Assembly (NCBI GenBank): GCA_905178155.1
Contig: CAJINV010000025.1
Coordinates: 256,717 to 320,716 of the forward strand
Direction: 5' to 3'
Length of the DNA: 64,000 nt
Source of the DNA: Amoebophrya sp. A120
Lineage: Eukaryota > Protista > Dinoflagellata
Positions 29,383 through 55,836 of this stretch are shown here, piece by piece. The notes below the pieces were generated by a model, which saw only the letters and a program-made list of their open reading frames with translations, was not told where the DNA came from and did not search any database. Position 1 is the stretch's first letter. Each line of letters opens with the position of its first letter. Both the position numbers and the translations under genes were made by a program.

Positions 29383-29577
29383 AGCTTCGAAGTAGATCAG
29401 CAGCGTGCGATATCTGATCCGATCAGCATCGAAGGTCGGAACTTTGAAGTTCAGCAGCGTGCGATATCTGATCGATCTTCAGCATCGAAGGTCCCAGCTT
29501 CGAAGTAGATCAGCAGCGTGCGATATCTGATCCGATCAGCATCGAAGGTCGGAACTTTGAAGTTCAGCAGCGTGCGG
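29383..29577. repeat. Short tandem repeat (about 55-57 bp units) upstream of UPP copy 1; homolog at about 39010-39148
   Basis: cagcagcgtgcgatatctgatc..cagcatcgaaggtc repeated. Confidence 0.8.
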
Positions 29578-30015
29578 ATCATGGTCTGATGCGTGTTTTT
29601 TGCAACACCGGATAATTCTTGTTTTCTGTGCAGCAGCTGCAACCGTTTCCAAGCCTAAAGAAAGCGTCGGCGCGGCATACGTACCTAAGTAGCCTGGTGA
29701 GGTGGAACTACGAATAATTCTCGTTTGGTCCTTTGTAAGTCGTATTTTCACACGCACTCCCCCCCACCTTCAGCCTCATTGTGCTTTTTAAGAAATTTAC
29801 CAATATTTTCACGACAGGACGCTCTTTTACTTTTGCATCTGCCTAGATCAATCTTGCGACTCACTTCCAACCATTTCTGCAGGGCGCAGTAGTTATTTTC
29901 AATCTCTGTAGCTAGTAGTTTTCCCGCAAGATAAGTAACCCTTAGGTTTTCCGCCCACCAGATTCAGACGGCGTTGTTTTCTTGTGTTTCTTCGACCAGG
30001 GTCGTGAAGAAGAAG

Positions 30016-33000
30016 ATGGTAGCATCTACCGACGAGCGTTCTTGTTATCAAATGCAAAAATGTCGGGGTCTGGATCTGGAAGGATGCAAGTTTGTCATGC
30101 TTGTCTGGCATGACTCGAAAATCTGTGTTGCATAGGCGCGAAAAATAAGCCCTCTTACCTGTCATACAAAAACGCAGTTTGCCATGCGGAATATGTACGA
30201 CATGATTGCAGCCAAAAAATTTGTCACGCATAGCTGCGTATTGCAGTGCGTCGATCATTCACTTTTAGCATTAACCCAGACCACATATTTGCAATCCATA
30301 CTTGCCCCGCACAACAAGCGGAACAAACCAAGCCCGGAAGTGCGGCGGACCCGAAAAGTCTGCCCAAGAACGAGGACCTGGAGCAAACTACCGATCTGTT
30401 GCAAGACAGTCCCCCGGGCTCCTGCGAGATCTCCGCCTCGCCGCGCCACGTCGAGGGGGAAATGCAGGCCAGCCCTGAGTCGACGTATTCATCTGCGGGG
30501 CACGAGGAGAAAGAAGAGATTGAAGGTGGCACCACCAGCCCGGCGGCCAAGAAGCGCAAGATGCAGGCCGCTACAGCGGAGGAGGAGTGTAGTACAACTA
30601 CGAAGAGTCCGAAGGAACTATCAAATGCAAAAATGTCTGGGTCTGGAAATAACTTGTGTTGCTGATACTTGCATTGCAAACTTGCTGCTTGTACGGCATA
30701 GCAGCATGAGAAAGTTCCCTCGGCATTCCTTGGGGATTTCATTCGTATTTAGCATGACAAACTACCATATCCAGCAAGACAAAAAAACTGGCCAATGGTA
30801 TTCATGCATTACAGATCTTGTTGTCCTTGAAGTCCTGCATCACAAATCCAGGCCCAGACATATTTGCATTTGATAGGAACTGATGGGGACGTATTTTCAG
30901 ACGAAGCTGAAAGGGCCGGTATGAATTGCAAAAGTATCGTACAACTCGTAGTTATAATTGCAGTCATGCATTGCAAACTCTTTTCTCAAAGGTAAATGTG
31001 CATTAGAAATTTTATTTCGTATGCTGAGGAAATTTGTAATGCCTTTATACGAGTACGATAGGATCGATACTTTTGCAATCCATAACCGGATAACTTCTAC
31101 CATCTGGGTTTGGATCAAGCAGATTCAAGGCTCAAGGGGCTGTTTGGCAACGTTCGCATGATCCTGATGATGGGGTCGGCTGACCGGGCGAAGAAGCTGG
31201 CGGAAAAGATCGACGTGAACTTCCCGATTCCGGAAGACCAGTTGGATTCTACCGTCCACGGCATCACCACTTCGAAGAAAGACGCTGAAACGAAGGAACG
31301 CTCCGTGGAAGACCTGTCGCGGGCGAAGGATATCAAAAGGAAAAATCCTCCCTCCCCATATTAAAGCCATGTCCTTCCGAAAATTTGTGATGCAGATTTG
31401 TGACCACAAATCCTGTCTGTCTTGCCAGAAGACAAATCTAAAGAGTCCGCCGCGATATGCAGGCGGTTTGTAATGCTGCAAGGCCTACAGGGCAGACGTC
31501 TGCCATGCTGGGTTCCTACACCAAAAGGCACCCCCTCACGCTTGCGATCTGCGTGCAGTGCTTTCCTGCAAGACAGGCGTGATTTGTGTACACAAATCCC
31601 GCATCACAGATTTCTGTTTTGATATGGGGAGGGGGGATTTTTCATTTTGATAAAGGACCGCGGGAGTTTGTTTGTCACGGGCTACTGCCCTATCAAGTGC
31701 AAAAGTGTCTGGGTCTGGAAGATTGCCAGGTTTGTTATGCATATTTTGCATACTTCATGGTCATGGTGCCTGTAATGCATGACCTAGCATCTTCACAGAT
31801 TTTTAACTCGCCTTCTGATGGTGCGTATTCCGCATTAGAAACGCCCACTCCGCGTAGCACAAACTGCACTCCTCTGGCGAGATCAAGCCTGAGGCTTTGT
31901 TCGTAAAGGGGGTGACTGTGGTTGAGGGGTAAAAAAGGTCATGCAATACAGATTTTTTTTTACCTTCCAAAGACAGCATCACAAGTTGCAACCTTCCAGA
32001 CCTCCAGACACTTTTGCATTTGATATGCCCCACCGAGCAGAAGAAGAATTGCGTTTTGATCTTCTCTCACGGGATGGGGAATGCGAGCACCAGCATTTTT
32101 ATCCCACGAAAAATTGTTTCACTGTGATGATTTTGCAAGATTTGGATCACAAGTTTTTTACACATGACAAAGAAAACTTGGCATGCGTGCGTCCTAAGGG
32201 AAAACACAGCTAAAAATCCAATGTCTTGCGTGTGTAGCAAGACAAACACATTTGTGTTCCGCTCTATGCATCACAAGTTTACAGTGAAACAGTTTTTTCT
32301 TGCGATAATTTTTTTGAACGAAATTACCAAGCTTCTGTTCTGGAGCGGCTGCGAGATGAAGAAGCTGGAAGCGCTGCGGATCGGCATATGACGGTGCACA
32401 ACTCTTCCTCCCCTGCAGTTGCCCTGCAGTTGTCATGCAAAACCCCAAATCCAGTCGCTTTCCTCCTGTGGCACTGTTTGCGTGACAAATTTCGAAAGGA
32501 GCCCAAACAGCACTACAGTAAGTACGTAAATTTGTAATGCACAATGTCCACGGTGGTCGCATCGCTGGCGTTTGTATAATTGTTGTTCATGCAATACAAA
32601 TGAGGGGGAGGGGGGTTGTGCACTGTCATGCGGCACTTGCGGTGGACTGAATGTGCCCGAGGGCACGGTGTGCATCACGGAGCGTATCACGAGAAAAAAG
32701 CGTTACAGTTACACATTGTGTTGCAAGCCCAGCATGACAGACAACCTCTGTTATGCCAGAAATGTATGCTCCTTCATCCGAGCTTCATTTCATGCGTGTT
32801 TTCCCTTATGCCCTGTGCATTGCAAGTTTTCCCTCTCATGCAAGGAAGATTTGTGTTGCTGAATTGACAACAGATGTGTAGTCACTGTAACACTTTTTTC
32901 ATCGGATAGAGCGAGCGATGGACGGACAAGAGGAATGGGGTTACGAGTTCACTTATGCACTACAAACATACGTTTGGAAGATTCAAACCTGTGATGCAGA

Positions 33001-34836
33001 TTCTGGAACAGACAAAAATCTGTATTGCGGAGCCAGCAGAAGATGCGCGAATCTTGTCTCCAGCAGAAGGCATGTCGCATGCAGACCAGGCATCATGGAG
33101 AAATAACCTCCGGAGAGTTTGTCATGCTCTGCGCGTATTCAAGACCTTTTTTCAGATGCAAAAACTGCATGACAATTTGTCGCAGCCCCAGACATGTTTG
33201 AAGTGCATATCACTGCCTTCGGGCAGAAGTTCCGCGATCCGGCTGACGCGGACAACAAGATGGTGGCGGAGCTGACGAAAATCGGGAAGGACATGCCGTT
33301 ATCCACTGCAAAAGTATCGTACTAGTAGAAATCGCATGCCAAGTTCCTCAGCATGAGGAATGACATCTGTAATGCGGATTTGACTTAACCGAAATAAAAT
33401 TTGTAAATGCATAAATGCGATTAGTACCAGTGCGATACTTTTGCAGTTCATAACCCTTTCCCTGCACCGTGGGCAACACCATGACGACCGATGATTACTA
33501 CCTCGGCCAGGGTCGCTTAGACGGTGCTTTGCTGCCCCCCGGTCATTTCAACCTCTCGTCTGGAGGCGGACGCGGAGGTACCAGCCCAGGCGATTATCAA
33601 ATGCAAAAGCATCGTACTAGTAGTAACCGCATTTACAAATTTGCTAAGCATGACAGAAGGAATTTCTCATGCTGATTTACCTTGAGAAAGAGATTTGTCA
33701 TGCATAAGTGCGATTACTACGAGTGCGATACTTTTGCACAGGATAGCGATGGTGCAGCAGCGATGAATACTAGCGAGATGAACCTCATCGACGAAAAACA
33801 GCAGAAGGAGTGGTTCGTGAAGCTGCACGAAAAACACGGAATCGTGAATATGGAGATGGAAGCCACGGGCATCTTAGCGTTTTTCCAGCGCTTGAAGATT
33901 CCCGCCGCGGTCATCGCAGTTGCGTTGCTGAATCGGTACAACGGTGACCATATCAAATGCAAAAATGTCTGGGTCTGGAAGATTCTGAGGCTTGTCATGC
34001 ATGTTTCACATGACCCAGGATGTCTGTAATGCACGACCTAGCATCACAGATTTTTAGAGGGCTTACTGCTGCCTACTCCGCATGACAAACACCCTCCCCG
34101 CGTAGCAAAAACTACACTGCTCTTGCTAGCCATGCAATACAGACGTTTTTAGAGTCCAAAGTTCGCATCACAAGTTCCAGACCCAGACATTTTTGCATTT
34201 GATAGACCAGCACAAGGTTTCCCGGGAGCAGATCAAGGCGTACTCGGAGCGGCACTTGGTATCCAAGAAAAAAACGTTGTTAGTATAACTTTGTGATGCG
34301 CAACATGCAAAATGATTGCGTCTGTCATGCTTGGCATGCGTCGTAGGCTCCATTAAAGGGCGTTATCACGTACTATCTGCGCATGACAGGTTTTTGCTGT
34401 CATGCGAGAGATATTTGTGATGCTAATCCTCCAAGAAAGTTACAGCTACAATGTTTTTTTCTTGGATACTTGGCCCTGGCCATGCAGTACCTGCACCAGC
34501 GCACCTATGGATGTGTCAGAGTTGAAATCGACAAAGTGGAAATAATTTGCCATGCATAAAATGCGACACAAAGAATGACTCTATTGCTGAAGGCGCAAGG
34601 GAGGCAGATTCTAGTGCTGGTAAGGGTCAAGAATTGGGCTGCTGACTAGCATGACAGAGAGCAGCCATCTTGCACTAAACAGCATGACAGACTTGCTTCA
34701 GAGGCTAGGAAAATTTGTCATGCGCCGATTGGAAACTGTGGGTCCAACTGGTATAGATTTTATGCATCACAAATTATTTCAACTTTGTTAATTTCAATCC
34801 TGACAGTTCCATAGCACCTTTGCGGTGTTGAAATGA
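30016..34836 (+). CDS. UPP: Uridine phosphorylase (eukaryotic UPP type), copy 1; 14 introners, no ordinary introns
   Basis: DNFYHLGL..ILMMGSADRA..VLIFSHGMGNAS..LRIGTCGG..GTVCITE..VGNTMTTDDYYLGQGRLDGA..GIVNMEMEA..VAVALLNRYNGDQ; TGA at 34834-34836. Confidence 0.92.
30046..30300. mobile_element. Introner, family A
   Basis: TSD CTTGT/CTTGC. Confidence 0.87.
30619..30875. mobile_element. Introner, family A
   Basis: TSD GGAAC. Confidence 0.9.
30920..31084. mobile_element. Introner, family B
   Basis: TSD GCCGG/ACCGG. Confidence 0.9.
31331..31652. mobile_element. Introner, family C
   Basis: TSD AAGGA. Confidence 0.9.
31691..32025. mobile_element. Introner, family A
   Basis: TSD TGCCC. Confidence 0.9.
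32100..32307. mobile_element. Introner, family D2
   Basis: TSD ATTTT. Confidence 0.9.
32387..32630. mobile_element. Introner, family E
   Basis: TSD CGGCA; restores RIG|TCGG. Confidence 0.9.
32685..32908. mobile_element. Introner, family D
   Basis: TSD GAGCG. Confidence 0.9.
32954..33209. mobile_element. Introner, family A-like
   Basis: TSD TCACT. Confidence 0.87.
33300..33452. mobile_element. Introner, family B
   Basis: TSD GCCGT/ACCCT. Confidence 0.87.
33595..33745. mobile_element. Introner, family B
   Basis: TSD GCGAT. Confidence 0.9.
33951..34204. mobile_element. Introner, family A
   Basis: TSD GACCA. Confidence 0.9.
34260..34468. mobile_element. Introner, family D3
   Basis: TSD CTTGG. 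Confidence 0.9.
34506..34813. mobile_element. Introner, family G (TIR TATGGA..TGTCAG..TTGAAAT), absent from UPP copy 2
   Basis: TSD GCACC; single GCACC at 44424-44428. Confidence 0.92.
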
Positions 34837-36059
34837 TTGAAGCTGCAATTTGAAGATAATAGATACTTCCACCAAGCGTGATATTTTTTTTTCTTTGTGA
34901 GCCAAGGGGAATTCGAATTTTTCATTCCATACGCAAACTTCAATACATTGGTTATACGAACTGAATCTTATCAAACACTACAAGAAGTAGTAGAAAAGGT
35001 GGGAGGAGCTGCACGGTGAGAACGGAAACTAGTATTTCCTTACGACCCACCGACCAGAGAGTTGTGGATGAATCTAGGCGCAATGAAAGACTTCTGTTGC
35101 GGCTGATGAAATGCAAGAACAAGTCCGATGTTGCTGAAAGACAACGCGATCTTTTTTATCTTCTATTTTTCTGTTTGTGGAGGACGATCATATTTGATTC
35201 ACTTATTTCTTTTCATTTGATTCTGTTTACAACAACCGAGGATGTTGACGCTCCAAATCCGAACACGCCCTAGATAAAGAAAAGACGAAGGAAGCACGTG
35301 GTGACGATAGATAAAGCGACATTTTGAATGATGCAAAGCTCGACTTTGTCGTGCACAAAGCAACTGTCTTTTTTGAAGATGTAATGGAAAGAACTTGCAT
35401 CGCAGGAAGATGTAATGCAAACAACTTTTATCATTTGCGAAAAAATGGAGAAAAGCGAAGATGATCATCGCTCGTAAATAGATATGAAGACCTACTACAG
35501 GCCTTTATCCAGTGCAAATTTATTTGTCGTGCAGAGTCTTCCAAGTAGGCGCGCGCGCATGTTCATCTCCGGAAATCCGGACCCCACGCAGAATGGTCTG
35601 CAAAAGCGAAGAGCGCCTGATCTTGATATCGAATGCAAATATGTCCGGGTCCGTATGGAAGAGTTGTGTGGCTCTCCTGTTTTTGCATCACGCAGAGGGT
35701 GTGGTATGCAAGACCTAGCATCTTCACATAAATCCAGAATAAAGTAAAATAGAAAGAAGATCGACTTTGAGCGCAAAATCGAAATCTAAATTAAACCGAA
35801 GGCAATATTAAGAAATTGACGCAGGACTCACTTCATTTTCAAAACAAACTACAAGTAGTGCTAGTTCAACTGAAGCCCACTTCTATCAATTGAGGTTCGA
35901 GCTGCGCCCTTTTATAATTTTCTACCTCGCAAGAAATAACAACGATGCGCATGCGTGTGATCTTCGACCACCTAAATCAATTTTATTGCGTTTTATTTTT
36001 CTCCGTCTCCCTTGCACACCAGTTGTATTAAACTACAAGGTAGCACAAGTAGAAAATAA

Positions 36060-37921
36060 ATGATGGTGGGACCACTACTTGCGACGCGAGGAGATGAAAA
36101 GTCTGCTGCGCCCCCTCTCGGTACTAGCAGTTCTGCTAGCGGTTTCCATGTTCACGCGGTGAAGAAGATCATTTTTTGCCCGCTTCTTCTCGGGTGCGCG
36201 CTCTTCTACTTCGTCAACGGGGCCGATCGTCCTCGGCGCCGTGCGTCCTCGGCGCGCGCCGTTCGTCCTCGACTCCGCGCAGCGCAGTCGACACTGGCGC
36301 GAAGATCGTCGTCGGCACCGGCCTATGAAATGCCAATATGTCTGGGTCTGGAAGGGTTGGAATTTCAGATGCTTTCTCTCATCTTCTCTCAACGGCCACA
36401 CAAAGATCTGCTATATCTATAAATAGAATATGCATGAACAGGAAATGCAAAACCTGTCCACTTTTGGCCACCGGGACAGAGGATTTCTCATGCAGAATAG
36501 GCATTGCAAAGCCGTCGCAGAAGAAGAAGAACCTATGTTCTAGTGCCGGGCTCGAGAATGATCCAGAGGACCTTCTGGGCGGCCATACAAAACCTGCGTG
36601 ACTACATTTTCCAGACCCAGACATATTTGCATTTGATAAGGCCACTAGAAGTACTAGCTCTGCTGGTGCGGTCGTCCCGACGGCGGGCGGCAGGCGTGCT
36701 TCCAAAAGGTGGAGCATGGGAGAAGATACTAGTAGCCGCGTGACACCTTTTTTACCGCCCCGCGACCTCGCGCAGTGGTCAGTGGCTGCAGGGATGATGC
36801 ACCAAGTCGCGAGGCCGCGGCTTGCCTGGCTGCAGAGCCTTCAGCAAAACGCGGACCCAGAATGGACCAAGGACGAGAAGCGCCGCGGGGAGCCCTTTCC
36901 CTCGAGCCTGGAATTTCTGAAGACCGCGATCAAGCTCTGGACCAATGCGGAATACGACACTTCGCACGAGCAGCGCAATTCGATTGTGGCGACATATGGT
37001 GAGCCCGACACGTGGAACGTCTCAGACGCGTTGCGCGCACGGAGAGGCGGGCGGCTCCGATTTCGTTTTGATTTTTGCAGCAATACCCCTCCAGCAGGGC
37101 AAGACTTACCTATGTCGTGGGGACTCTGCTTTCATTCCTCGTTCAGCGTCACAAACTGGCGAGTGACCGGCGTGGAAAGCTTGGAACGCATGTTCGAGGA
37201 CATGCGTGGCCTTTCCTTTCCGCTCTTCTGGGATGTATCTCAGGTTACAAACATGGACGGGATGTTTCAAGGCAGCGACTTCAACCAGGATCTCAACACT
37301 TGGAAAGTCGATGCTGTTACAACCATGCGGTCTATGTTCCACGACGCCTCTAACTTCAACGGTGATCTCAGCCGCTGGGACGTGCGTTCTGTTACAGACA
37401 TGAGCCATATGTTCCGTGGCGCCCAGAATTTCAACAGGGATCTCAGCAGATGGAACGTGAGTGCTGTTACAGACATGAGATCGATGTTCGAGGACGCCTC
37501 GAACTTCAACGGTGATCTCAGCCGCTGGGACGTGCGTTCTGTTACAGACATGAGCCATATGTTCCGTGGCGCCCAGAATTTCAACAGGGATCTCAGCAGA
37601 TGGAACGTGAGTGCTGTCCAAAATATGAGAAACCTGTTTTTCGAAGCGAGCACGTTTAACCAACCCATTGACGCATGGGGAGAGAAGATTGCGCTTGGGA
37701 CGGATTTGTCGGGGATGTTCGGCGCGCATGTGAACAACCCTGGCACTGCGTTCAACCAAAGCTTGAGAAGCTTTGAGCCGTTGATCAGCGAAGCCTCCTC
37801 TCGCACCTACAAAGATATGCTTTTGGGCGCGACGAGTTTCGATTGGGGTGCAAACTTCAGCAGAAATTTTTTATCACAGCGGGAAGGACGGGAGGTGCTG
37901 AGGCTACTAGGGCGAAGATAA
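36060..37921 (+). CDS. DUF285/BspA-type 25-aa repeat protein, copy 1, with signal-peptide-like segment and F-box-like motif; 1 introner (36324-36638)
   Basis: Repeats like WDVRSVTDMSHMFRGAQNFNRDLSR; exon 1 has IIFCPLLLGCALFYFVNG; frame joins after introner removal. Confidence 0.85.
36324..36638. mobile_element. Introner, family A, shared with 53907-54226
   Basis: TSD CGGCC/AGGCC. Confidence 0.9.
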
Positions 37922-39595
37922 ACTTCTATTAAAGATCCTTGCTTTTGGTTTTGTCTCCTCTCGCCTAAAGCAGCGCGAGGTCCTCTAGTTTTCTGTAGAT
38001 CGCTGTTGCTATCCTCCCTCGCCTCCTTGGCTAAACAGATACTTTTGTTTTTCCACAATATCAGGAACGATCGGCATTAAAGCAGCGCAGCCCGAGTAGC
38101 TTAGAACTTTCTACTAGACTAATCGGTCGCACTTGTAAAGTTGTAGAACTCTCAGAACTCTTCATGTATCTATATGTGCAATCTATAAACCGCTCACTTT
38201 GCCCTGCTTGCATCTACAGCCTACGAGGAAGAAGGAATTATGATGTTACAGCATTCGGATCAGCAACGGAAATGGGCCACGGTGCAGCTTCTTACACTTT
38301 TCTTTCTGGAAAATAGTCTTCACTGCTTTCGTAAAAATCCTGGGAGGTGATGCAATGAAGAAAAAAAGAAATACTGGAATGGAAAGAAGTATTTTTCCTT
38401 GTATAATAATGTATGATTGGTGTATGATTGGTGTATAATAATGTATGATGGAGATGATGTATGATTGGTGTATTGAAAAAAAAAAAACAGCCAGATGTGT
38501 AGAGCAAGATGGAAGCGAAGTCGTCGTTGGACTCATACACTTGTTCACTCCGCCGATCGAATCGGTGTCGACTTGAGTAACTACGTCCTCGGAGCATGCA
38601 TGCATAGGCATACGGCATACCCCACCACCCCCCCCGACGTTACGTTAGTACCTGGGTTAGAACGTCTCGATTTTTGTTGGGCAGACTCCTAATGCAAACG
38701 CATCGGTTGATGTCCGCCGTTTCTGGAAGTCGTCGGTCGGTGATCGGTCTATCGATCCCTGAACGCTGCCGTGTGCAGTTTGAGTTCTATCAGACAAGAA
38801 CGTCAAGGAGACGGTATTCCGCAGTTTTTGTTGAGGATCATAACGACGACGTAGACGAAGCGAGAGCTGCAGCGATAGAACTCAAGCGGTAGATGATACT
38901 CGCGAACCCACGGGCAACATACCTCGAAGGCAGGAGGACAAAGACAAAGAAGCAGTCCGAAAACAACTCTGGGGTTGCGGCGGCCATCAAGCGGTGACAT
39001 TTTGAAACGCCTCGAAGTAGATCAGCAGCGTGCGATATCTGATCCGATGAGCATTGAAGGTCCCAGCTTCGAAGTTCAGCAGCGTCCGATGGATATCTGA
39101 TCGATCTTCAGCATCGAAGGTCCCAGCTTCGAAGTTCAGCAGCGTGCGGGTCAATGTCTGATGCTGGTTTTTTGCAACAGCGGATGATTCTAGTTTTCTG
39201 TGCAGCAGCAACCGTTTCCAAGCCTGAAATAAAAGCGTCGGCAAGGCATACGTAAGTAGTCTGGTGAGGAACTACGAATCACTCTCGTTTGGTCCTTTGT
39301 AAGTCGTATTTTCACATGCACTCTCCCCCACCTTCATCCCGCTCATTGTGCTTTTTACGAAAATTTAAATTATATCCAAAATTACGACAGGACGCTTTTT
39401 TACTTTTCCATCTGCCTAGATCAATCTTGCAACTACCATGCCTGCGGAGCGCAGTACTTATTAATCTCTGTACGTAGAAGTTTCCCCGCAAGATAACCAC
39501 CTTCAGCTTTTGCGCCCAACAGACTCCGACCGTGATAGCACCGCACGGGTGAAGAAAATTATTATACCCATATTTTTTACTGTAGAACGTTTTGT

Positions 39596-39902
39596 TATGG
39601 ATGTGTCAGAGTTGAAATCGACAAAGTTGAAATAATTTGCCATGCATAAAATGGATGCCAGTTGGAACCCAGTTTCCAAGTGGCGCATGACAAATTTCGG
39701 TGGTCCCTAAATCCAGTTTGTCATGCTGTTTAGGCAAAGAAGAGCGATTTTCTCATGCTACTTTAGCAGCTCGATCTGTAGCCCCAAACAGGCTGACAAT
39801 CGGCCTCACTTGCCTGCTCTGCAACACACGTACCTCGGGTCATGCATTTTATGCATTACAAATTATTTCAACTTTGACGATTTCAAACCTGACACTTCCA
39901 TA
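39596..39902. mobile_element. Introner, family G, just upstream of the UPP copy 2 ATG, absent from copy 1
   Basis: TSD TTTGT. Confidence 0.88.
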
Positions 39903-39951
39903 TTTGTTTTCTATTTCTTGTGTCTCTTCGAGCAGGGTCGTGAAGAAGAAG

Positions 39952-42900
39952 ATGGTAGCATCTACCGACGAGCGTTCTTGTTATCAAATGCAAGAAAAGT
40001 GTCTGGGTCTGGAAGGATGCAAGTTTGTCATGCTTATGATCTGGCATGACTCGAGAATCTGTGTTGCATAGGCACGAAAAAGCCCTCTTACCTGTCATGC
40101 AAGAACGCAGTTTGCCATGCGGAAGACGTACGACACTGCAGCCAAAAGATTTGGCATGCATAGCTGCGTACTGCAGTGCGTCGATCATTCACTTTTAGCA
40201 TTTTTAACCCAGACCACATATTTGCAATCCATACTTGTTCCGCACAAGCGGAACAAACCAAGCCCGGAACTGCGGCGGACCCGAAAAGTCTGCGCCACGA
40301 GGACCTGGAGCAAACTACCGATCTTTTGCAAGACAGTCCCCCGGGGTCCTGCGAGATTTCCGCCTCGCCGCGCCAGGTCGAGGGGGAGATGCACGCCAGC
40401 CCCGAGCCGACGTACTCATCTGCGGGGCACGAGGAGAAAGAAGAGATTCAAGGTGGCACCACCAGCCCGGCGGCCAAGAAGCGCAAGATGCAGGCCGCTA
40501 CAGCGGAGGAGGAGTGTAGTACTACGAAGAGTCCGAAGGAACTATCAAATGCAAAAATGTCTGGGTCTGGAAACTTGTGTTGCTGATACTTGCATTGCAA
40601 ACTTGCTGCTTGTACGGCATAGCAGCATGAGAAATTTCCCTCGGCATTCCTTGGGGATTTCATTCGTATTTAGCATGACAAACTACCATATCCAGCAAGA
40701 CAAAAAAACTGGCCAATGGTATTCATGCATTACAGATCTTGTTGTCCTTGAAGTCCTGCATCACAAATCCAGGCCCAGACATATTTGCATTTGATAGGAA
40801 CTGATGGGGACGTATTTTCAGACGAAGCTGAAGGGGCCGGTATGAATTGCAAAAGTATCGTACTCGTAGTTGTAATTGCAGTCATGCATTACAAACCTTT
40901 TTCTTAACGTAAATCCGCATTGCAAATTTTATTTCGTATGCTGGGGAAATTTGTAATGCATTTATACGAGGTCGATACAACTTTTGCAATTCATAACCGG
41001 ATAACTTCTACCATCTGGGTTTGGATCAAGCAGATTCAAGACTCAACGGGCTGTTTGGCAACGTTCGCATGATCCTGATGATGGGGTCGGCTGACCGGGC
41101 GAAGAAGCTGGCGGAAAAGATCGACGTGAACTTCCCGATTCCGGAAGACCAGTTGGATTCTACCGTCCACGGCATCACCACTTCGAAGAAAGACGCTGAA
41201 ACGAAGGAACGCTCCGTGGAAGACCTGTCGCGGGCGAAGGATATCAAAAGGAAAAATCCTCCCTCCCCATATTAAAGCCATGTCCTTCCGAAAATTTGTG
41301 ATGCAGATTTGTGACCACAAATCCTGTCTGTCTTGCCAGAAGACAAATCTAAAGAGTCCGCCGCGATATGCAGGCGGTTTGTAATGCTGCAAGGCCTACA
41401 GGGCAGACGTCTGCCATGCTGGGTTCCTACACCAAAAGGCACCCCCTCACGCTTGCGATCTGCGTGCAGTGCTTTCCTGCAAGACAGGCGTGATTTGTGT
41501 ACACAAATCCCGCATCACAGATTTCTGTTTTGATATGGGGAGGGGGGATTTTTCATTTTGATAAAGGACCGCGGGAGTTTGTTTGTCACGGGCTACTGCC
41601 CTATCAAGTGCAAAAGTGTCTGGGTCTGGAAGATTGCCAGGTTTGTTATGCATATTTTGCATACTTCATGGTCATGGTGCCTGTAATGCATGACCTAGCA
41701 TCTTCACAGATTTTTAACTCGCCTTCTGATGGTGCGTATTCCGCATTAGAAACGCCCACTCCGCGTAGCACAAACTGCACTCCTCTGGCGAGATCAAGCC
41801 TGAGGCTTTGTTCGTAAAGGGGGTGACTGTGGTTGAGGGGTAAAAAAGGTCATGCAATACAGATTTTTTTTTACCTTCCAAAGACAGCATCACAAGTTGC
41901 AACCTTCCAGACCTCCAGACACTTTTGCATTTGATATGCCCCACCGAGCAGAAGAAGAATTGCGTTTTGATCTTCTCTCACGGGATGGGGAATGCGAGCA
42001 CCAGCATTTTTATCCCACGAAAAATTGTTTCACTGTGATGATTTTGCAAGATTTGGATCACAAGTTTTTTACACATGACAAAGAAAACTTGGCATGCGTG
42101 CGTCCTAAGGGAAAACACAGCTAAAAATCCAATGTCTTGCGTGTGTAGCAAGACAAACACATTTGTGTTCCGCTCTATGCATCACAAGTTTACAGTGAAA
42201 CAGTTTTTTCTTGCGATAATTTTTTTGAACGAAATTACCAAGCTTCTGTTCTGGAGCGGCTGCGAGATGAAGAAGCTGGAAGCGCTGCGGATCGGCATAT
42301 GACGGTGCACAACTCTTCCTCCCCTGCAGTTGCCCTGCAGTTGTCATGCAAAACCCCAAATCCAGTCGCTTTCCTCCTGTGGCACTGTTTGCGTGACAAA
42401 TTTCGAAAGGAGCCCAAACAGCACTACAGTAAGTACGTAAATTTGTAATGCACAATGTCCACGGTGGTCGCATCGCTGGCGTTTGTATAATTGTTGTTCA
42501 TGCAATACAAATGAGGGGGAGGGGGGTTGTGCACTGTCATGCGGCACTTGCGGTGGACTGAATGTGCCCGAGGGCACGGTGTGCATCACGGAGCGTATCA
42601 CGAGAAAAAAGCGTTACAGTTACACATTGTGTTGCAAGCCCAGCATGACAGACAACCTCTGTTATGCCAGAAATGTATGCTCCTTCATCCGAGCTTCATT
42701 TCATGCGTGTTTTCCCTTATGCCCTGTGCATTGCAAGTTTTCCCTCTCATGCAAGGAAGATTTGTGTTGCTGAATTGACAACAGATGTGTAGTCACTGTA
42801 ACACTTTTTTCATCGGATAGAGCGAGCGATGGACGGACAAGAGGAATGGGGTTACGAGTTCACTTATGCACTACAAACATACGTTTGGAAGATTCAAACC

Positions 42901-44663
42901 TGTGATGCAGATTCTGGAACAGACAAAAATCTGTATTGCGGAGCCAGCAGAAGATGCGCGAATCTTGTCTCCAGCAGAAGGCATGTCGCATGCAGACCAG
43001 GCATCATGGAGAAATAACCTCCGGAGAGTTTGTCATGCTCTGCGCGTATTCAAGACCTTTTTTCAGATGCAAAAACTGCATGACAATTTGTCGCAGCCCC
43101 AGACATGTTTGAAGTGCATATCACTGCCTTCGGGCAGAAGTTCCGCGATCCGGCTGACGCGGACAACAAGATGGTGGCGGAGCTGACGAAAATCGGGAAG
43201 GACATGCCGTTATCCACTGCAAAAGTATCGTACTAGTAGAAATCGCATGCCAAGTTCCTCAGCATGAGGAATGACATCTGTAATGCGGATTTGACTTAAC
43301 CGAAATAAAATTTGTAAATGCATAAATGCGATTAGTACCAGTGCGATACTTTTGCAGTTCATAACCCTTTCCCTGCACCGTGGGCAACACCATGACGACC
43401 GATGATTACTACCTCGGCCAGGGTCGCTTAGACGGTGCTTTGCTGCCCCCCGGTCATTTCAACCTCTCGTCTGGAGGCGGACGCGGAGGTACCAGCCCAG
43501 GCGATTATCAAATGCAAAAGCATCGTACTAGTAGTAACCGCATTTACAAATTTGCTAAGCATGACAGAAGGAATTTCTCATGCTGATTTACCTTGAGAAA
43601 GAGATTTGTCATGCATAAGTGCGATTACTACGAGTGCGATACTTTTGCACAGGATAGCGATGGTGCAGCAGCGATGAATACTAGCGAGATGAACCTCATC
43701 GACGAAAAACAGCAGAAGGAGTGGTTCGTGAAGCTGCACGAAAAACACGGAATCGTGAATATGGAGATGGAAGCCACGGGCATCTTAGCGTTTTTCCAGC
43801 GCTTGAAGATTCCCGCCGCGGTCATCGCAGTTGCGTTGCTGAATCGGTACAACGGTGACCATATCAAATGCAAAAATGTCTGGGTCTGGAAGATTCTGAG
43901 GCTTGTCATGCATGTTTCACATGACCCAGGATGTCTGTAATGCACGACCTAGCATCACAGATTTTTAGAGGGCTTACTGCTGCCTACTCCGCATGACAAA
44001 CACCCTCCCCGCGTAGCAAAAACTAGACTGCTCTTGCTAGTCATGCAATACAGACGTTTTTAGAGTCCAAAGTTCGCATCACAAGTTCCAGACCCAGACA
44101 TTTTTGCATTTGACAGACCAGCACGAGGTTTCCCGGGAGCAGATCAAGGCGTATTCGGAGCGGCACTTGGTATCGCAAGAAAAAAGTGTTACAGTTACAC
44201 ACATAGTCTATGCAAGACCGGCAACACAGACAACCTTTCTCATGCAGGAAATGCTTGGGATGAACCTCGATTCCTTCCTGTTTTCCCTTATGATCTTCGC
44301 ATTACAAGTTTTCTCTGCAGCCACGCAGAGAAAATTTGTGTTGCTGAAGTTACAACAAATGTGTATCTGTGAGCACTTTTTTCTTGTGATACTTGGCCCT
44401 GGCCATGCAGTACCTGCACCAGCGCACCTTTGCTATGCAGCAAAAAAACTGTGTAAGTGTAAATTTGTGTTGCAGAACATGCAACAGAGTTACACCTGTC
44501 ATGCCAGACAGCCACGAAGTCCTCTTTTACTGTGTGTTTTCCCTTACAAGCCACGCATGACAGGTTTTCTCTGTCATGTAGAAGAGCAAATTTGTAATGC
44601 TGTTTCTCAAAGAAAGTTACACTTACACACTTTTTTTCCTGGATATTTGCGGTGTTGAAATGA
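39952..44663 (+). CDS. UPP: Uridine phosphorylase, tandem copy 2; 14 introners in CDS
   Basis: Near-identical to 30016-34836 (offset 9911 in core); TGA at 44661-44663. Confidence 0.9.
39982..44115. mobile_element. Twelve introners shared with UPP copy 1: 39982-40233, 40543-40796, 40841-40995, 41242-41563, 41602-41936, 42011-42218, 42298-42541, 42596-42819, 42865-43120, 43211-43363, 43506-43656, 43862-44115
   Basis: Same sites, families and TSDs as in 30046-34204. Confidence 0.9.
44171..44391. mobile_element. Introner, family D, same site as 34260 but a different element
   Basis: TSD CTTGG. Confidence 0.88.
44434..44645. mobile_element. Introner, family D3, absent from UPP copy 1
   Basis: TSD TTTGC; single TTTGC at 34819-34823. 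Confidence 0.92.
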
Positions 44664-46286
44664 TTGAAGCTACAATTTGAAGAAAAAACTACTTCTAAAA
44701 GCGTACTATTTTTTTTCTTTGTGAGCCACCAGCAGGGGAATTAGAATTTTTCATTCCATACGCAAACTTCAATAAATTGGCTATACGAACTGAATCTTAT
44801 CAGACACTACGTACAAGAAGTAGAAAAGGTGGCAGGAGCTGCACGGTGAGAACGGAAACTAGTATTTCCTTACGACCCACCGACCAGAGATTTGTGGATG
44901 AATCTAGGCGCAATGAAAGACTTCTGTTGCGCCTGATGAAATGCAAGAGCAAGTCCGATGTTGCTGCAAGACTACAACGCGATCTTTTTTATCTTTTATT
45001 TTTCTGTTTGTGGAGGACGATCATATTTGATTCACTTATTTCTTTTCATTTGATTGTGTTTACAACAACCGAGGATGTTGACGCTCCAAATCCAACCCCG
45101 CCCTAGATAAAGAGAAGACGAAGGAAGCAGGTGGTGACGATAGATAAAGCGACATTTCGAATGATGCAAAGCTCGACTTTGTCGTGCACAAAGCAACTGT
45201 CTTTTTTGAAGATGTAATGGAAAGAACTTTTATCGCAGGAAGATGTAATGCAAACAACTTTTATCATTTGCGAAAAAATGGAGAAAAGCGAAGATGATCG
45301 CTCGTATAAATAGATATGAAGACCTACTACAGGCCTTTATCCAGTGCAAATTCATTTGTCGCGCAGAGTCTTCCAAGTAGGCGCGCGCGCATGTTCATCT
45401 CCGGAAATCCGGACCCCCACGTAGAAGGGTCTGCAAAAGTGAACGCCTGATCTACTTGATATCGAATGCAAATTATATGTCCGGGTCTGGAACAAAAGTT
45501 CTGTGGCGCTCCTGTTTTTGCATGACACAGAGGGTCTGGTATGCAAGATGTAGCATCTTCTTCACAGGTTTTGAGAAGATGGAGCAAAAGCAATACCTAA
45601 TTCGCAAGACAAATCCTCACTTTCGGTGAAACAAGATGAGCAACTTTTGCGGTCCATGCGTGCCAGATCATTTTTGCGTGACCTAAAATGCGCGGTAGAA
45701 GTTTGCACGAATGATCCAGACCCAGATATTAAGTGCATTTACAAAAAGGTCAAAAAAGGTCAGTGTAGTCGTCAAATGGCTCCTGCCGCGACGGCCCGTG
45801 GAGGTCGTGGGGCTATTACTTTCTTAGGTCACGTGAACAAGAAGAAAAACGAACTTATTCTTCCATCAAGATCACGGCTCTTCTTCCTCTATCAAAAGGA
45901 TCCCCTCTACTTACACGATAGCAGGAAAGTATAAACTACAGCACAGCTATAGTTGTAAAAGCAACAGATCCAGAATAAAGTAAAAAAGAGTATCGACTTG
46001 GAGCGCAAAATCGAAATCTGAATTAAACCGAAGGCAATATTGAGAAATTGAAACAGGATTCACTTCTTCATTTTCAAAACTACAAGTAGTTCTAGTTCAC
46101 CTGAAGCCCACTTCTATCACAGAAATTGAGGTTTGAGCTGCACCCTTTTATAACTTCCTACCTCGCGACAAAAAATAAGGGCGACGTGTGTGATCTTCGA
46201 ACAGCTAAATAAATTTTGTTGCGCCGTTTTATTTGTCCCCCTCGGACAGCTGTATTAAACTACAAGCTAGCACAAGTAGAAAATAA

Positions 46287-46398
46287 ATGATGGTGGGACA
46301 ACTACTTGCAACGCGAGGAGATGAAAAGTCTGCTGCGCCCCCTCTCGGTTGTACTGGCAGCTCTGCTAGCGGTTTCCATGTTCATGCGGTGAAGAAGA
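46287..46398 (+). pseudogene. Truncated 5' end of a DUF285 gene copy; a second short copy of the same leader lies at about 47544-47597
   Basis: MMVGQLLATRGDEKSAAPPLG..GFHVHAVKK matches 36060 and 52947, then homology stops abruptly. Confidence 0.6.
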
Positions 46399-47296
46399 TG
46401 TGTTTCGCTTCGACGTGTCCTTGGGGGACAGCGGATTGCCTTGCCCGGTGTGAGGAGGGGAGGAGCTCGTTGTACAACAACTTCTACATAGGGAGATGAA
46501 AAACTACAACGGACCGACTGGAAAATTCACGAAATCCAGATCAATACAAGTTTTCTTTTGCACTCAAACTTCGACGATACCCTGACCTTGATAAAATTTC
46601 TTGATACCAAAAAATAAAGAATACAGCTCACCAAACCCAATTGGCAAATGCATGCTTCATGCTTCTTTGAGTTTAGAAGTTGACAACTCATTTTCTACTT
46701 CGGAGCAACATGGACCGTTTCCGTTTCCGCAAGCATACGAGCAAACTTGTACAATTTGAACACAGCCCCTGGGTTTTTTTACGAATGAAAATAATCCAAG
46801 ATTCAAAGCCACTTGATAGATTGTAGACGAACACGAGAAACATGATTATTAGCACCGCTGGGGGTTGCAATGTACCTGTAGAATTTCATTTATGTGAAGC
46901 CAGGAAAAGGAATAGAAGAATCATCTGATGTAGCGATTAGGAGAGCTCTGGGCTTTTCAACAGCGACATTCGTAGTTTTGTTCCTTGTCGTTCTTGTCTT
47001 CCGCCGGCGTGTTTTTCAACCGTGTTGGTTTGTTTGTTGTCTTGAACAATCTACCTCTTTATTGGAGAGAATTTCAATTTACCTTCCCTACAGACTTGCT
47101 CTTATTGCAAGCGACTTGCGCGGGGAAAAACCGCCAGCACGCACAGGTCAGAACATCATCAACAGTTCGGTGTTGTACTAGTGAAAGATCTTTCATCTTG
47201 TGCTCGGAACTTCTACCTAGGAATACGAATACCACCTTGAGTTTCTTGATTACACCTACATAATTCAAAAAGTATAAAGAAAACAAGAAATGCCAC

Positions 47297-49828: not shown

Positions 49829-50117
49829 NNNNNNNNNNNNNNNNNNNNNNNNNNNNNNNNNNNNNNNNNNNNNNNNNNNNNNNNNNNNNNNNNNNNNNNN
49901 NNNNNNNNNNNNNNNNNNNNNNNNNNNNNNNNNNNNNNNNNNNNNNNNNNNNNNNNNNNNNNNNNNNNNNNNNNNNNNNNNNNNNNNNNNNNNNNNNNNN
50001 NNNNNNNNNNNNNNNNNNNNNNNNNNNNNNNNNNNNNNNNNNNNNNNNNNNNNNNNNNNNNNNNNNNNNNNNNNNNNNNNNNNNNNNNNNNNNNNNNNNN
50101 NNNNNNNNNNNNNNNNN
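49829..50117. other. Assembly gap (N run)
   Basis: Run of n. Confidence 1.
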
Positions 50118-51371
50118 GACGCCTCGAACTTCAACGGTGATCTCAGCCGCTGGGACGTGCGTTCTGTTACAGACATGAGCCATATGTTCCGTGGCGCCCA
50201 GAATTTCAACAGGGATCTCAGCAGATGGAACGTGAGTGCTGTTACAGACATGAGATCGATGTTCGAGGACGCCTCGAACTTCAACGGTGATCTCAGCCGC
50301 TGGGACGTGCGTTCTGTTACAGACATGAGCCATATGTTCCGTGGCGCCCAGAATTTCAACAGGGATCTCAGCAGATGGAACGTGAGTGCTGTTACAACCA
50401 TGAACGGTATGTTCGCGCACGCCTCGACCTTCAACGGGGACCTGAGCGAATGGAAAGTGAGTGCTGTTAGAGACATGGGCTGTATGTTCGATGGCGCCTC
50501 GACCTTCAACGGTGATCTCAGCAGATGGGACGTCAGTGCTGTTAGACACATGTACTCTATGTTCCAGGGCGCTTCGACCTTCAACGGGGACCTGAGCCGA
50601 TGGGACGTGAGTGCTGTTACAAGCATGACGGCGATGTTCTCCGGCGCCTCGACCTTCAACGGGGACCTGAGGAAATGGACCGTGAGTGCTGTTACACACA
50701 TGCAATTTATGTTCCAGGGCGCTTCGACCTTCAACGGGGACCTGAGCCGATGGGACGTGAGTGCTGTTACACACATGCAATTTATGTTCCAGGGCGCTTC
50801 GACCTTCAACGGTGATCTCAGCAGATGGGACGTCAGTGCTGTTAGACACATGTACTCTATGTTCCAGGGCGCCTCGACCTTCAACGGTGATCTCAGCAGA
50901 TGGAACGTGAGTGCTGTTACAGACATGTCTTTTATGTTCCGTGGCGCCTCGACCTTCAACGGGGACCTGAGCGGATGGGACGTGAGTGCTGTTACAAGCA
51001 TGAGCAGTATGTTCGAAGGCGCGCGGAATTTCAACAGGGACCTGAGCGGATGGGACGTGAGTGCTGTCCAAGATATGAGAAACCTGTTTTTCGAAGCGAG
51101 CACATTTAACCAACCCATTGACGCATGGGGAGAGAAGATTGCGCTTGGGACGGATTTGTCGGGGATGTTCGGCGCGCATGTGAACAACCCTGGCACTGCG
51201 TTCAACCAAAGCTTGAGAAGCTTTGAGCCGTTGATCAGCGAAGCCTCCACTCGCACCTACAAAGATATGCTCTTGGGCGCGACGAGTTTCGATTGGGGTG
51301 CAAACTTCAGCGAAAATTTTTTATCACAGCGGGAAGGGCAGGAGGTGTTGAGGCTACTAGGGCGAAGATAA
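50118..51371 (+). CDS. DUF285/BspA repeat protein, copy 2, 3' part (5' end in gap or displaced)
   Basis: At least 12 tandem 75-bp/25-aa repeats; C-terminus and 3' flank almost identical to copy 1. Confidence 0.85.
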   Translation, partial: DASNFNGDLSRWDVRSVTDMSHMFRGAQNFNRDLSRWNVSAVTDMRSMFEDASNFNGDLSRWDVRSVTDMSHMFRGAQNFNRDLSRWNVSAVTTMNGMFAHASTFNGDLSEWKVSAVRDMGCMFDGASTFNGDLSRWDVSAVRHMYSMFQGASTFNGDLSRWDVSAVTSMTAMFSGASTFNGDLRKWTVSAVTHMQFMFQGASTFNGDLSRWDVSAVTHMQFMFQGASTFNGDLSRWDVSAVRHMYSMFQGASTFNGDLSRWNVSAVTDMSFMFRGASTFNGDLSGWDVSAVTSMSSMFEGARNFNRDLSGWDVSAVQDMRNLFFEASTFNQPIDAWGEKIALGTDLSGMFGAHVNNPGTAFNQSLRSFEPLISEASTRTYKDMLLGATSFDWGANFSENFLSQREGQEVLRLLGRR

Positions 51372-52946: not shown

Positions 52947-55836
52947 ATGATGGTGGGACAACTACTTGCGACGCGAGGAGATGAAAAGTCTGCTGCGCCC
53001 CCTCTCGGTTGTACTGGCAGCTCTGCTTGTTGTACTGTGCGTGGCGGTTTCCATGTTCATCCGGTGTTGAAGAAGATCACTCTTGGCCCGCTTCTTCTCG
53101 GGTGCGCGCTCTTCTACTTCGTCAACGGGGCCGCGGCGGCGCAGTCGACATCGACGCAATCGTCCTCCGGTTTCCATGTTCATCCGGTGTTCAAGAAGAT
53201 CACTCTTGTATCCTGAGTAAAAAGGTACCCACACCAGAGTCAGGATGGAGATTTTGCAACACAAACCTAGGAGTTTTGTGAGTCACGCATGACAAGTTGC
53301 ACTCTGCAGTGTAGTGCAGGTTAGCAAGTGCAGCCGCGTCACAGATTCATCTGTTCATCCTGTTCACAGCATCACAAATTCCAAAACACGATTGGAAATG
53401 GCTCTCATGCGGATGCGCATTACAAGTCTTCCTGTCTTTGCAAATCTGCATTACAACTCTGGTGTGGGTACGTTTTTACTCAGGACATCTTGGCCCGCTT
53501 CTTCTCGGGTGCGCGCTCTTCTACTTCGTCAACGGGGCCGATCGTCCTCGGCGCCGTTCGTCCTCGGCGCGCGCCGTTATCAATTGTAAAAATGTCTGGG
53601 TCTGGAAGATTCTAAACTTGTGATGCTGTCTCTGGATTCTAAAAAAATTTGCATTGCATGACCGGCAACAGAACTCCATTTTGTGCTACCCGGAGAGGGC
53701 ATTTCTCATGCGGTAGAGGCATCACAAAGGCCTTTGAAAATCTGTCATGCTAGAGCATGCATCACAGACATCATGAGTCTTCCAAAATATGCATGACAAA
53801 CCTGGCAAGCTTCCAGACCCAGACATTTTTACATTTGATAGCCGTTCGTCCTCGACTACGCGCAGCGCAGTCGACACTAGCGCGTCGATCGTCCTCGGCA
53901 CCGGCCTATGAAATGCCAATATGTCTGGGTCTGGAAGGGTTGGAATTTGAGATGCTTTCTCTCATCTGCTCTCAACGGCCACTACACAAAGATCTGCTAT
54001 AAATAGAATATGCATGAACAGCAAATGCAAAACCTGTCCACTTTTGGCCACCGGGACAGAGGATTTCTCATGCAGAATAGGCATTGCAAAGCCGTCGCAG
54101 AAGAAGAAGAAGAACCTCTGTTGTAGTGCCGGGCCCGAGAATGATCCAGAGGACCTGCTTCTGGGCGGCCATACAAAACCTGCATGACTACATTTTCCAG
54201 ACCCAGGCATATTTTTGGATTTGATAAGGCCACTCGAAGTACTAGCTCTGCTGGCGTGGTCGTCCCGACGGCGGGCGGCGGGCGTGCTTCCAAAAGGTGG
54301 AGCATCGGAAGAAATACTACTAGCCGCGTGGCACCTTTTTTACCGCCCCGCGACCTCGCGCAGTGGTCAGTGGTTGCACAGGATATCCACCAAGTCGCGA
54401 AGCCGAGGCTTGCATGGCTGCAGAAAATTCAGCAAAACGCGGACCCAGAATGGACCATGGACGAGAAGCGCCGCGGGGAGCCCTTTCCCCCGAGCCTGGA
54501 ATTTCTGAAGACCGCGATCAAGCTCTGGACCAATGCGGAATACGACACTTCGCACGAGCAGCGCAAAGCGATTGTGGCGAAATATGGCGAGCCAGACACG
54601 TGGAACGTCGCAGACGCGTTGGGCGCACGGGACGAAAGCGGGCGGCTCCGATTTCGTTTTGATTTTTGCAGCAATACCCCTCCAGCAGGGCAAGACTTAC
54701 CTATGTCGTGGGGACTCTGCTTTCATTCCTCGTTCAGCGTCACAAACTGGCGAGTGACCGGCGTGGAAAGCTTGGAAAGCATGTTCGAAGGCATGCGCGG
54801 CCTTTCCTTTCCGCTCTTCTGGGATGTATCTCGGGTTACAAACATGTACGCGATGTTTCGAAGCAGCGACTTTAGCCAGGATCTCAACAGCTGGGACGTG
54901 AGTGCTGTTACAACCATGTCTTCTATGTTCAGTCACGCCTGGAGCTTCAACGGTGATCTCAGCAGATGGGACGTGAGTGCTGTTACAGACATGTCTTATA
55001 TGTTCAATGGTGCCTCGACCTTCAACGGGGACCTGAGCGGATGGGACGTAAGGGCTGTTACAAACATGGACTCTATGTTCTACGGCGCCTCGAATTTCAA
55101 CGGCGGGGACCTGCGCGGATGGAACGTGAGTTCTGTTAGAAACATGAGCGCTATGTTCCGTGACGCCTCGAACTTCAGCGGGGATCTCAGCAGATGGGTC
55201 GTGAGTGCTGTTATGTACATGGAGTCTATGTTCCTTCGCGCCTCGACCTTCAACGGGGACCTGAGCGGATGGGACGTGAGTGCTGTTACAGACATGAATT
55301 GTATGTTCCGTGACGCCTCGAGCTTCAATGGGGATCTCAGCAGATGGGTCGTGACTGCTGTCACAACCATGCACTCGATGTTCCGTGGCGCCTCGACCTT
55401 CAGCGGGGACCTGAGCGGATGGGACGTGAGTGCTGTTAGACACATGAGTAACATGTTCCACAACGCCTCCAGCTTCAACGGGGACCTGAGCGGATGGGAA
55501 GTGGGTGCTGTCCAAGATATGAGCGAGATGTTTTTCGAAGCGACCACGTTTAACCAACCCATTGGCGCATGGGGAGAAAAGATTTGGCGTGGGATGGCAA
55601 GGACTCGCGTGCGCCAAGTTCTATTGGTTGGGATGTTCGGCGCGTATGTAGGAGGCCGTGGAACTGCGTTCAACCAGAGCCTGAGAGGCTTCGAACCGTT
55701 GATGCTTTCGGGCGCGACGAGATTTGAGTTTGACCGCATGCTTTCGGGCGCGACGAGCTTCAACTGGGATGCAAACTTCAGCCAAGAGCTTTTAGCACAG
55801 CGGAAGGTAGTGAAGAAGCTACTCGGGCACCGATAA
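52947..55836 (+). CDS. DUF285/BspA repeat protein, copy 3, with duplicated signal-peptide module; 3 introners
   Basis: Homologous to 36060-37921; frame continuous after removing 53209-53487, 53578-53840, 53907-54226. Confidence 0.87.
53209..53487. mobile_element. Introner, family F
   Basis: TSD TCTTG; empty site in the duplicated leader at about 53081. Confidence 0.9.
53578..53840. mobile_element. Introner, family A
   Basis: TSD GCCGT; empty site in copy 1 at about 36258. Confidence 0.9.
53907..54226. mobile_element. Introner, family A
   Basis: TSD CGGCC/AGGCC. Confidence 0.9.

Follow-up and report, generated by a model that had tools for sequence, protein, structure and literature searches.

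The gene under study occupies positions 36060–37921 on the forward strand of the window, that is, of the whole 64-kb stretch of DNA that was analysed. It consists of two in-frame exons and, once spliced, encodes a product of 513 aa: a hydrophobic stretch and an Arg/Ser/Ala linker are followed by an F-box-like segment, which precedes a cap and the DUF285/PARCEL repeats. Three copies of the gene, which has been triplicated recently, are present in the window. The features of the first copy (copy 1) and of the two others are listed below.

36060..36320, plus strand: exon 1, 87 codons from the first in-frame ATG; open frame, covered by contigs of run X1
36168..36215, plus strand: hydrophobic stretch, residues 37–52, followed by a small-residue motif V-N-G-A; recessed signal or membrane anchor
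36216..36709, plus strand: Arg/Ser/Ala-rich linker of 58 residues, interrupted by the intron; 14 Arg, 12 Ala, 10 Ser and 1 acidic residue
36321..36640, plus strand: GC-AG intron, 320 nt
36641..37921, plus strand: exon 2, in frame with exon 1
36710..36823, plus strand: degenerate F-box-like segment, residues 111–148, with Met-Gly in place of Leu-Pro
36914..37024, plus strand: helical N-cap, common to other DUF285 proteins; weak BLAST matches to their caps, helices in the model
37226..37921, plus strand: DUF285/PARCEL repeats (about six, of 25 residues each), C-terminal cap and stop; PF03382, TIGR02167 and structure model
46287..46399, plus strand: copy 2, 5' fragment; the first 37 codons, after which similarity stops, with unrelated DNA beyond
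50118..51371, plus strand: copy 2, 3' part; at least 13 repeats and the C-terminal cap, behind an assembly gap (N) at 49829–50117
52947..55836, plus strand: copy 3, with three introners (53209–53487, 53578–53840 and 53907–54226), a doubled hydrophobic unit, an F-box-like segment and about 9 repeats

The splicing assumed in the earlier note proved correct (GC-AG intron at 36321–36640, exons in frame, joint in X1), and the peptides that it quoted were all found in place. One contig of run X1 links position 36319 to position 36640 and leaves out exactly 320 nt; its shorter side measures 75 letters. That run X1 is RNA is judged from its behaviour rather than from its record, and the joined form also equals an empty insertion site. 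Contigs of this run cover the exons and leave the intron interior and positions 35504–35775 uncovered. On intergenic DNA of a second stretch, runs X1 and X3 were blank and run X5 was present in 30 of 30 bins; since X1 and X3 are blank on DNA that X5 covers evenly, both behave as RNA. No splice joint of copy 3 was found among the 15 of 40 joints listed. Contigs with the gene came from unlabelled runs only, and the raw RNA runs X9–X11 placed no reads on it, a blank that says nothing about its expression. The last 19 codons of exon 1 differ between copies 1 and 3 by five synonymous and no non-synonymous changes (chance 0.004), and the frame is therefore coding upstream of the intron. Its only in-frame starts in exon 1 are the two ATGs at 36060–36065.

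Other readings of this region were rejected. The antisense of the hydrophobic stretch (36075–36320, minus strand) would encode a charged peptide that is protein-like and includes a basic, NLS-like run, and a minus-strand gene over exon 1 was dismissed because no start codon lies upstream and stops occur in copy 3. A second frame in exon 1 (36094–36162, plus strand; also at 46321 and 52981) encodes a 22–29-residue peptide resembling a textbook signal peptide. As the true start it was discarded, since the frame ends at TGA in all three copies and the X1 contig is unspliced there; nor can the peptide connect to the repeat frame via the observed splice. A start at the Met directly before the F-box was rejected because this Met is absent from copy 3, and stop-codon reassignment because with the standard code every Trp of the repeats lies within an open frame.

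The intron contains an introner at 36324–36638, a 315-nt inverted-repeat element, together with one copy of a 5-nt direct repeat. The 64-kb window is rich in elements of 250–320 nt with terminal inverted repeats, for which 29 left and 26 right ends were detected and 19 could be paired. The 5-nt direct repeats match at 4 or 5 letters in 17 of the 19 paired elements (1.7% in random pairs, a chance level that is somewhat higher after a small adjustment of the ends), and 16 of the 19 begin with TAT, seven nucleotides and AAA. The elements match the A120-type introner signature (PMC7789003). They resemble the inverted-repeat introners of Amoebophrya (Farhat et al. 2021, PMC7789003) in inverted repeats starting with TAT, in direct repeats of 3–5 nt, in high copy number and in being spliced out. 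Terminal inverted repeats, direct repeats and a repeated family were all found, and removal from the transcript is seen in the 320 nt that the X1 contig skips (X1 being RNA by behaviour). No difference from the described introners was seen, and the elements of the window are ordinary members of that class. Over the introners, the summed contig depth in X5 is at least 1000-fold above that of the flanks, a value that is not a copy number. The introners of copy 3 at 53209–53487 and 53578–53840 belong to different families, the matching sites of copy 1 (36175–36263) are empty, and both elements are flanked by a perfect 5-nt target duplication. These two extra introners are a recent intron gain that is visible directly between paralogs, which here offer filled and empty sites next to each other.

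Tandem arrays are also present in the window at 3287–4873 (99-nt unit), 7454–10096 (213 nt), 17799–20580 (107 nt) and 5–409 (19 nt), the first two or three of them apparently inside gene introns. Pieces of IFT80 at 2623–3099 and 5149–5712 show the window to be eukaryotic, and a piece of an AI-2E transporter lies at 16878–17510.

The gene copies are located in a segmental duplication of about 10 kb. It pairs 29448–35725 with 39019–45560 (96% identity over 4.5 kb) and also includes an upstream intron-rich gene with no Pfam match in the pieces tested. Copy 3 amounts to 671 codons after each element and one direct repeat are left out, and its pieces contain no stop. The repeat number is about 6 in copy 1, at least 13 in copy 2 and about 9 in copy 3, and no indel between the three copies shifts the frame. 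Past the assembly gap, the first 275 nt match copy 1 at 99.6% identity. The segment 46400–49828, which separates the gap from the 5' fragment of copy 2, holds minus-strand, protein-like open frames and was either inserted or joined there in scaffolding. The three copies, together with a distant paralog described below, bear out the local expansion claimed earlier. In the first 55 codons pN/pS is 1.2, with no sign of purifying selection, and 5 of 9 changes fall at the first codon position. Copies 1 and 3 diverge most in the F-box-like segment (pN 0.158, pS 0.044), although its 13.8 non-synonymous and 1.2 synonymous changes are not significant (p = 0.10).

The DUF285 repeats named in the earlier note were confirmed by PF03382 (E = 1.1e-69; 232 bits against a cut-off of 25) and by the PARCEL model TIGR02167 (97 bits against a cut-off of 30, 6 stretches), so that the tandem 25-residue repeats stand above the family cut-offs. 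According to the structure predicted from a 29-sequence alignment, the repeats form an LRR-like solenoid (pLDDT 95+ in the repeats, overall mean 77), and the F-box part has a pLDDT below 50; the single-sequence fold, with a pLDDT of 44, is uninformative. The best viral fold matches of the model are BspA-family proteins of giant viruses. Its PDB fold matches are weak LRRs, none at E ≤ 0.001. Exon 2 contains 5 N-glycosylation sequons, and a C-terminal hydrophobic anchor was not found in the product. A search for homologs of the whole protein returned 2149 repeat-driven matches, and a precomputed F-box was present in none of the 120 listed.

Roske et al. 2010 (PMC2996958), in the part considered, describe the DUF285/PARCEL or "BspA family" proteins (PF03382, TIGR02167) from bacteria, diatoms and prasinophytes and note that they are often membrane-targeted. 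The product shares with them the 25-residue tandem repeats, the LRR-like solenoid, the helical N-cap, the variable repeat number and a possible membrane-targeting sequence; it differs in that an F-box-like module precedes the cap and in its source, a parasitic dinoflagellate. In the portion of bioRxiv 2024.06.08.598090 considered, DUF285 is within the top 100 diatom transcript families, and part of PMC10720644 reports 38 DUF285 genes in one algal giant virus. The view of DUF285 as typical of bacteria such as Mycoplasma was too narrow, as free-living diatoms, prasinophytes and giant viruses commonly carry the domain too (from parts of PMC2996958 and bioRxiv 2024.06.08.598090), and for that reason the repeats are uninformative on parasitism. 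DUF285, PF03382 and BspA are absent from the text-readable supplements of PMC7789003 and PMC6176090.

The signal peptide proposed earlier stands in part: the hydrophobic stretch is real (Kyte–Doolittle 2.41 in a 15-residue window), but it begins only at residue 37. Because the core occupies residues 37–52, beyond the first ~30 residues, the leader does not qualify as a classical signal peptide. The core is followed by small residues at –3/–1, V-N-G and then A in all units and V-S-G in the distant paralog (assessed by eye). The hydrophobic unit is present twice in copy 3. Flanking charge is a near tie for the copy 1 leader (+3 before, +4 after), with five Arg directly after the stretch; it is +5.5 before and +1 after in the paralog, and +4 before and 0 after for the first unit of copy 3. 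The charge bias would favour a luminal C-side for these last two. No motif of the RxLR, RRL or PEXEL type, as these are commonly defined, was found between the leader and the F-box.

The distant paralog, P0122, was the only non-self protein to match the F-box-like segment plus cap among 1.84 billion representatives (E = 3.2e-7; 7 matches in total), and its source name is Amoebophrya sp. A120. The matches P0123–P0126 were set aside as low-complexity or repeat artefacts (five of 126 non-repeat matches). P0122 has a hydrophobic stretch upstream of the F-box that ends in F-F-F-V-S-G, although the likeness of the leaders is not significant (E = 0.39). From the A120-type introner signature and the naming of this paralog, we infer that the gene is encoded by an intracellular parasite, likely Amoebophrya. 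Another protein, P0072 (JGI/IMG), carries an N-terminal 3'-5' exonuclease followed by an F-box-like segment, a cap and DUF285 repeats. The order and spacing of these three modules are as in the 513-aa protein, whereas the exonuclease domain occupies the N-terminus and the hydrophobic leader is absent. The F-box of P0072 matches PF12937 at E = 0.006, which is under the cut-off, and is more canonical than the one analysed here. No direct BLAST link between P0072 and the 513-aa protein was found, and attempts to gather further F-box–cap–DUF285 proteins found none. In P0107, an F-box-like segment precedes DUF285 repeats and is accompanied by a PKD-like domain. P0072 and P0107 suggest a wider F-box–PARCEL class.

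The F-box claim of the earlier note also divides. At E ≤ 10, PF00646 and PF12937 did not match the segments of copy 1, copy 3 or P0122; the F-box segment had no match in Pfam, NCBIfam or PDB sequences at the same level, the PDB sequence searches giving chance matches only. Word-based homolog searches with the pre-repeat region and with the F-box segment found no relatives. The segment lacks the N-terminal Leu-Pro-x-Glu with a hydrophobic first helix: in register with L-P-D-E, M-G-E-D is present in copy 1 and I-G-R-N in copy 3, and P0122 keeps the leucines of helix 1 but not the Pro. The core pattern I..[FY]L...DL....V, on the other hand, occurs above chance in copy 1, copy 3 and P0122, and the L-P-x-x-D-L-A-Q core and a His are invariant across P0122, which is 37% identical in the F-box segment. 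A profile of our own, built from 10 F-box-like sequences (7 over the Pfam cut-off and 3 weak viral ones), found 45 PDB chains at 13–44 bits, all of them F-box proteins by name or recall. It scored copy 1 at 4.7, copy 3 at 6.5 and P0122 at 4.5 bits, far below the PDB F-boxes and above nearly all shuffles (scores reached by 5, 2 and 1 of 2000, respectively). In the profile ranking of 1586 window pieces copy 3 took the first place and copy 1 the sixth; three of the pieces ranked between them are unrelated. Among 27 non-repeat segments preceding a DUF285 cap, the top five were P0072, a cluster mate of P0072, copy 3, copy 1 and P0122. Analysis of the F-box segment with hhalign gave E = 8e-4 and a probability of 25%. 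The named ESM Atlas clusters nearest to exon 2 residues 20–75, DUF285 clusters excluded, are F-box clusters with scores of 0.81 and 0.75, which fall under the 0.9 mark and are a lead only. The segment is read as a genuine but degenerate F-box that fails formal F-box membership.

The prediction of a complex with Skp1, which the earlier note had called for, gave 0.87 for the 57-residue F-box segment against 0.02 for the best of 3 controls; the Skp1 was a Pfam-confirmed stand-in from a giant-virus bin, and Skp1–F-box is a solved textbook pair. Of 78 solved complexes, 51 attain the mark for the complex score, against 2 of 108 mismatched pairs. The runs agreed in at least 68% of contacts, with a partner pLDDT of at least 61, and the modelled contacts join the C-terminal helices of Skp1 to F-box residues that are invariant in the family. 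Since the pair is a solved one and the Skp1 a stand-in, the model shows F-box likeness, not binding by this copy. An F-box fold on Skp1 is, to this extent, supported by computation. Among the giant-virus records, seven (L103–L109) encode Skp1, some apparently with introns, and three of these are Pfam-confirmed.

F-box effectors that combine an F-box with repeats and a secretion signal and that act on host Skp1 are known from Legionella (AnkB), Ralstonia (GALA), poxviruses (ankyrin/F-box proteins) and the Hessian fly (SSGP-71). Unlike in these, the F-box here lacks Leu-Pro, the signal is recessed, the repeats are PARCELs, and both delivery and binding in the host are putative. The giant-virus F-box–FNIP proteins of Megavirus baoshan, in the part of PMC9525666 considered, likewise combine an N-terminal F-box with an LRR-like solenoid and have been proposed to select proteins for degradation. 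They differ in having another repeat family, in being made in the host cytosol, where no leader is needed, and, as far as the same part of PMC9525666 indicates, in F-boxes recognisable by standard profiles. In the literature searched, which left most subscription journals outside, no publication was found that treats DUF285 and an F-box together, and no named Amoebophrya effector was found in the literature considered. F-box–repeat adaptors as such are already known.

It is possible, though somewhat short of an even chance, that the protein is exported as a Skp1-binding adaptor or as a decoy that captures host Skp1. An F-box acts on Skp1 in the cytosol or nucleus. With a leader, two arrangements are coherent, namely export into the host and an anchor in the parasite that faces the cytosol; a luminal F-box would encounter Skp1 only after export. 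The fuller version, an exported effector family with a PARCEL solenoid and a proline-less F-box that is delivered into the nucleus of the host dinoflagellate and captures host Skp1 there, is put forward tentatively. The recessed leader would route the protein into the parasite secretory pathway, where it would be cleaved behind the V-N-G motif and from which it would be delivered to the host nucleus; there the degenerate F-box may engage host Skp1 as substrate adaptor or decoy and the variable repeat faces may bind targets. PMC12101541 has no bearing on the F-box proline. Absence of this proline may mean Skp1 binding without Cul1, and because the Leu-Pro pair is missing, sequestering of Skp1 is as likely as a working ligase. 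According to part of PMC9478091, A120 resides first in a vacuole and then as trophonts in the host nucleus, whose chromosomes shrink at an early stage; part of PMC6176090 reports that ubiquitin-pathway genes are up early in infection. Against export would speak the lack of purifying selection in the first 55 codons, the near-tie charge in copy 1, the missing export motif and the same module order without a leader in P0072; moreover, with two hydrophobic stretches the F-box of copy 3 could remain in the cytosol of the parasite.

A rival explanation is a membrane-tethered F-box adaptor of the parasite's own SCF, in which an uncleaved anchor would hold a cytosolic F-box and repeats and recruit the parasite's own Skp1 at an organelle membrane. 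The five Arg after the copy 1 stretch (net +4 after against +3 before), the doubled stretch of copy 3, which would give a hairpin or a signal plus stop-transfer with the C-part cytosolic, and the F-box modelled on Skp1 are consistent with such an adaptor, and the leaderless P0072 indicates that the module can work cell-autonomously. It is nevertheless unlikely, given that the charge bias is opposite in P0122 and the first unit of copy 3, that 16 residues, Pro and Gly among them, make a short stretch for a stable anchor, and that tandem expansion with variable repeat number would suit host-facing genes. In another reading, the product is a variable PARCEL protein that is secreted or sits at the surface as an adhesin or decoy antigen, and its F-box is a non-working relic. 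PARCEL proteins are mostly membrane-targeted surface proteins (part of PMC2996958 and the names of database matches), and the loss of Leu-Pro, the negative Pfam result, the fast divergence of the F-box region and the five sequons fit this picture; yet the residues invariant in P0122, the L-P-x-x-D-L-A-Q core and the His, are the modelled Skp1 contacts, and a relic F-box is also regarded as improbable. Finally, the leader itself may be incidental, newly captured or barely functional as the antisense of a charged stretch, in which case the protein would be a soluble F-box–PARCEL adaptor of the parasite. The protein-like antisense peptide, the first-position changes (5 of 9 in the first 55 codons) and the recurrence of the hydrophobic unit in scattered pieces point this way, but the reverse frame lacks an upstream start and is interrupted by stops in copy 3, no indel between the three copies shifts the forward frame, and P0122 also has an upstream hydrophobic stretch, which together make an incidental leader very unlikely.

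Amoebophrya is a parasite of dinoflagellates that controls blooms and takes over the nucleus of its host. If export and capture of host Skp1 are true, a Skp1-binding exported protein would be a concrete handle on this takeover and would represent, for a marine alveolate parasite, a class of effectors directed at Skp1; it would also give DUF285, which is among the most abundant domains without an assigned function in diatom transcripts, a first molecular function, as substrate receptors. Independently of export, the F-box ahead of the DUF285 repeats in this protein and in P0072 suggests that some eukaryotic DUF285 proteins are substrate receptors of ubiquitin ligases rather than surface proteins.
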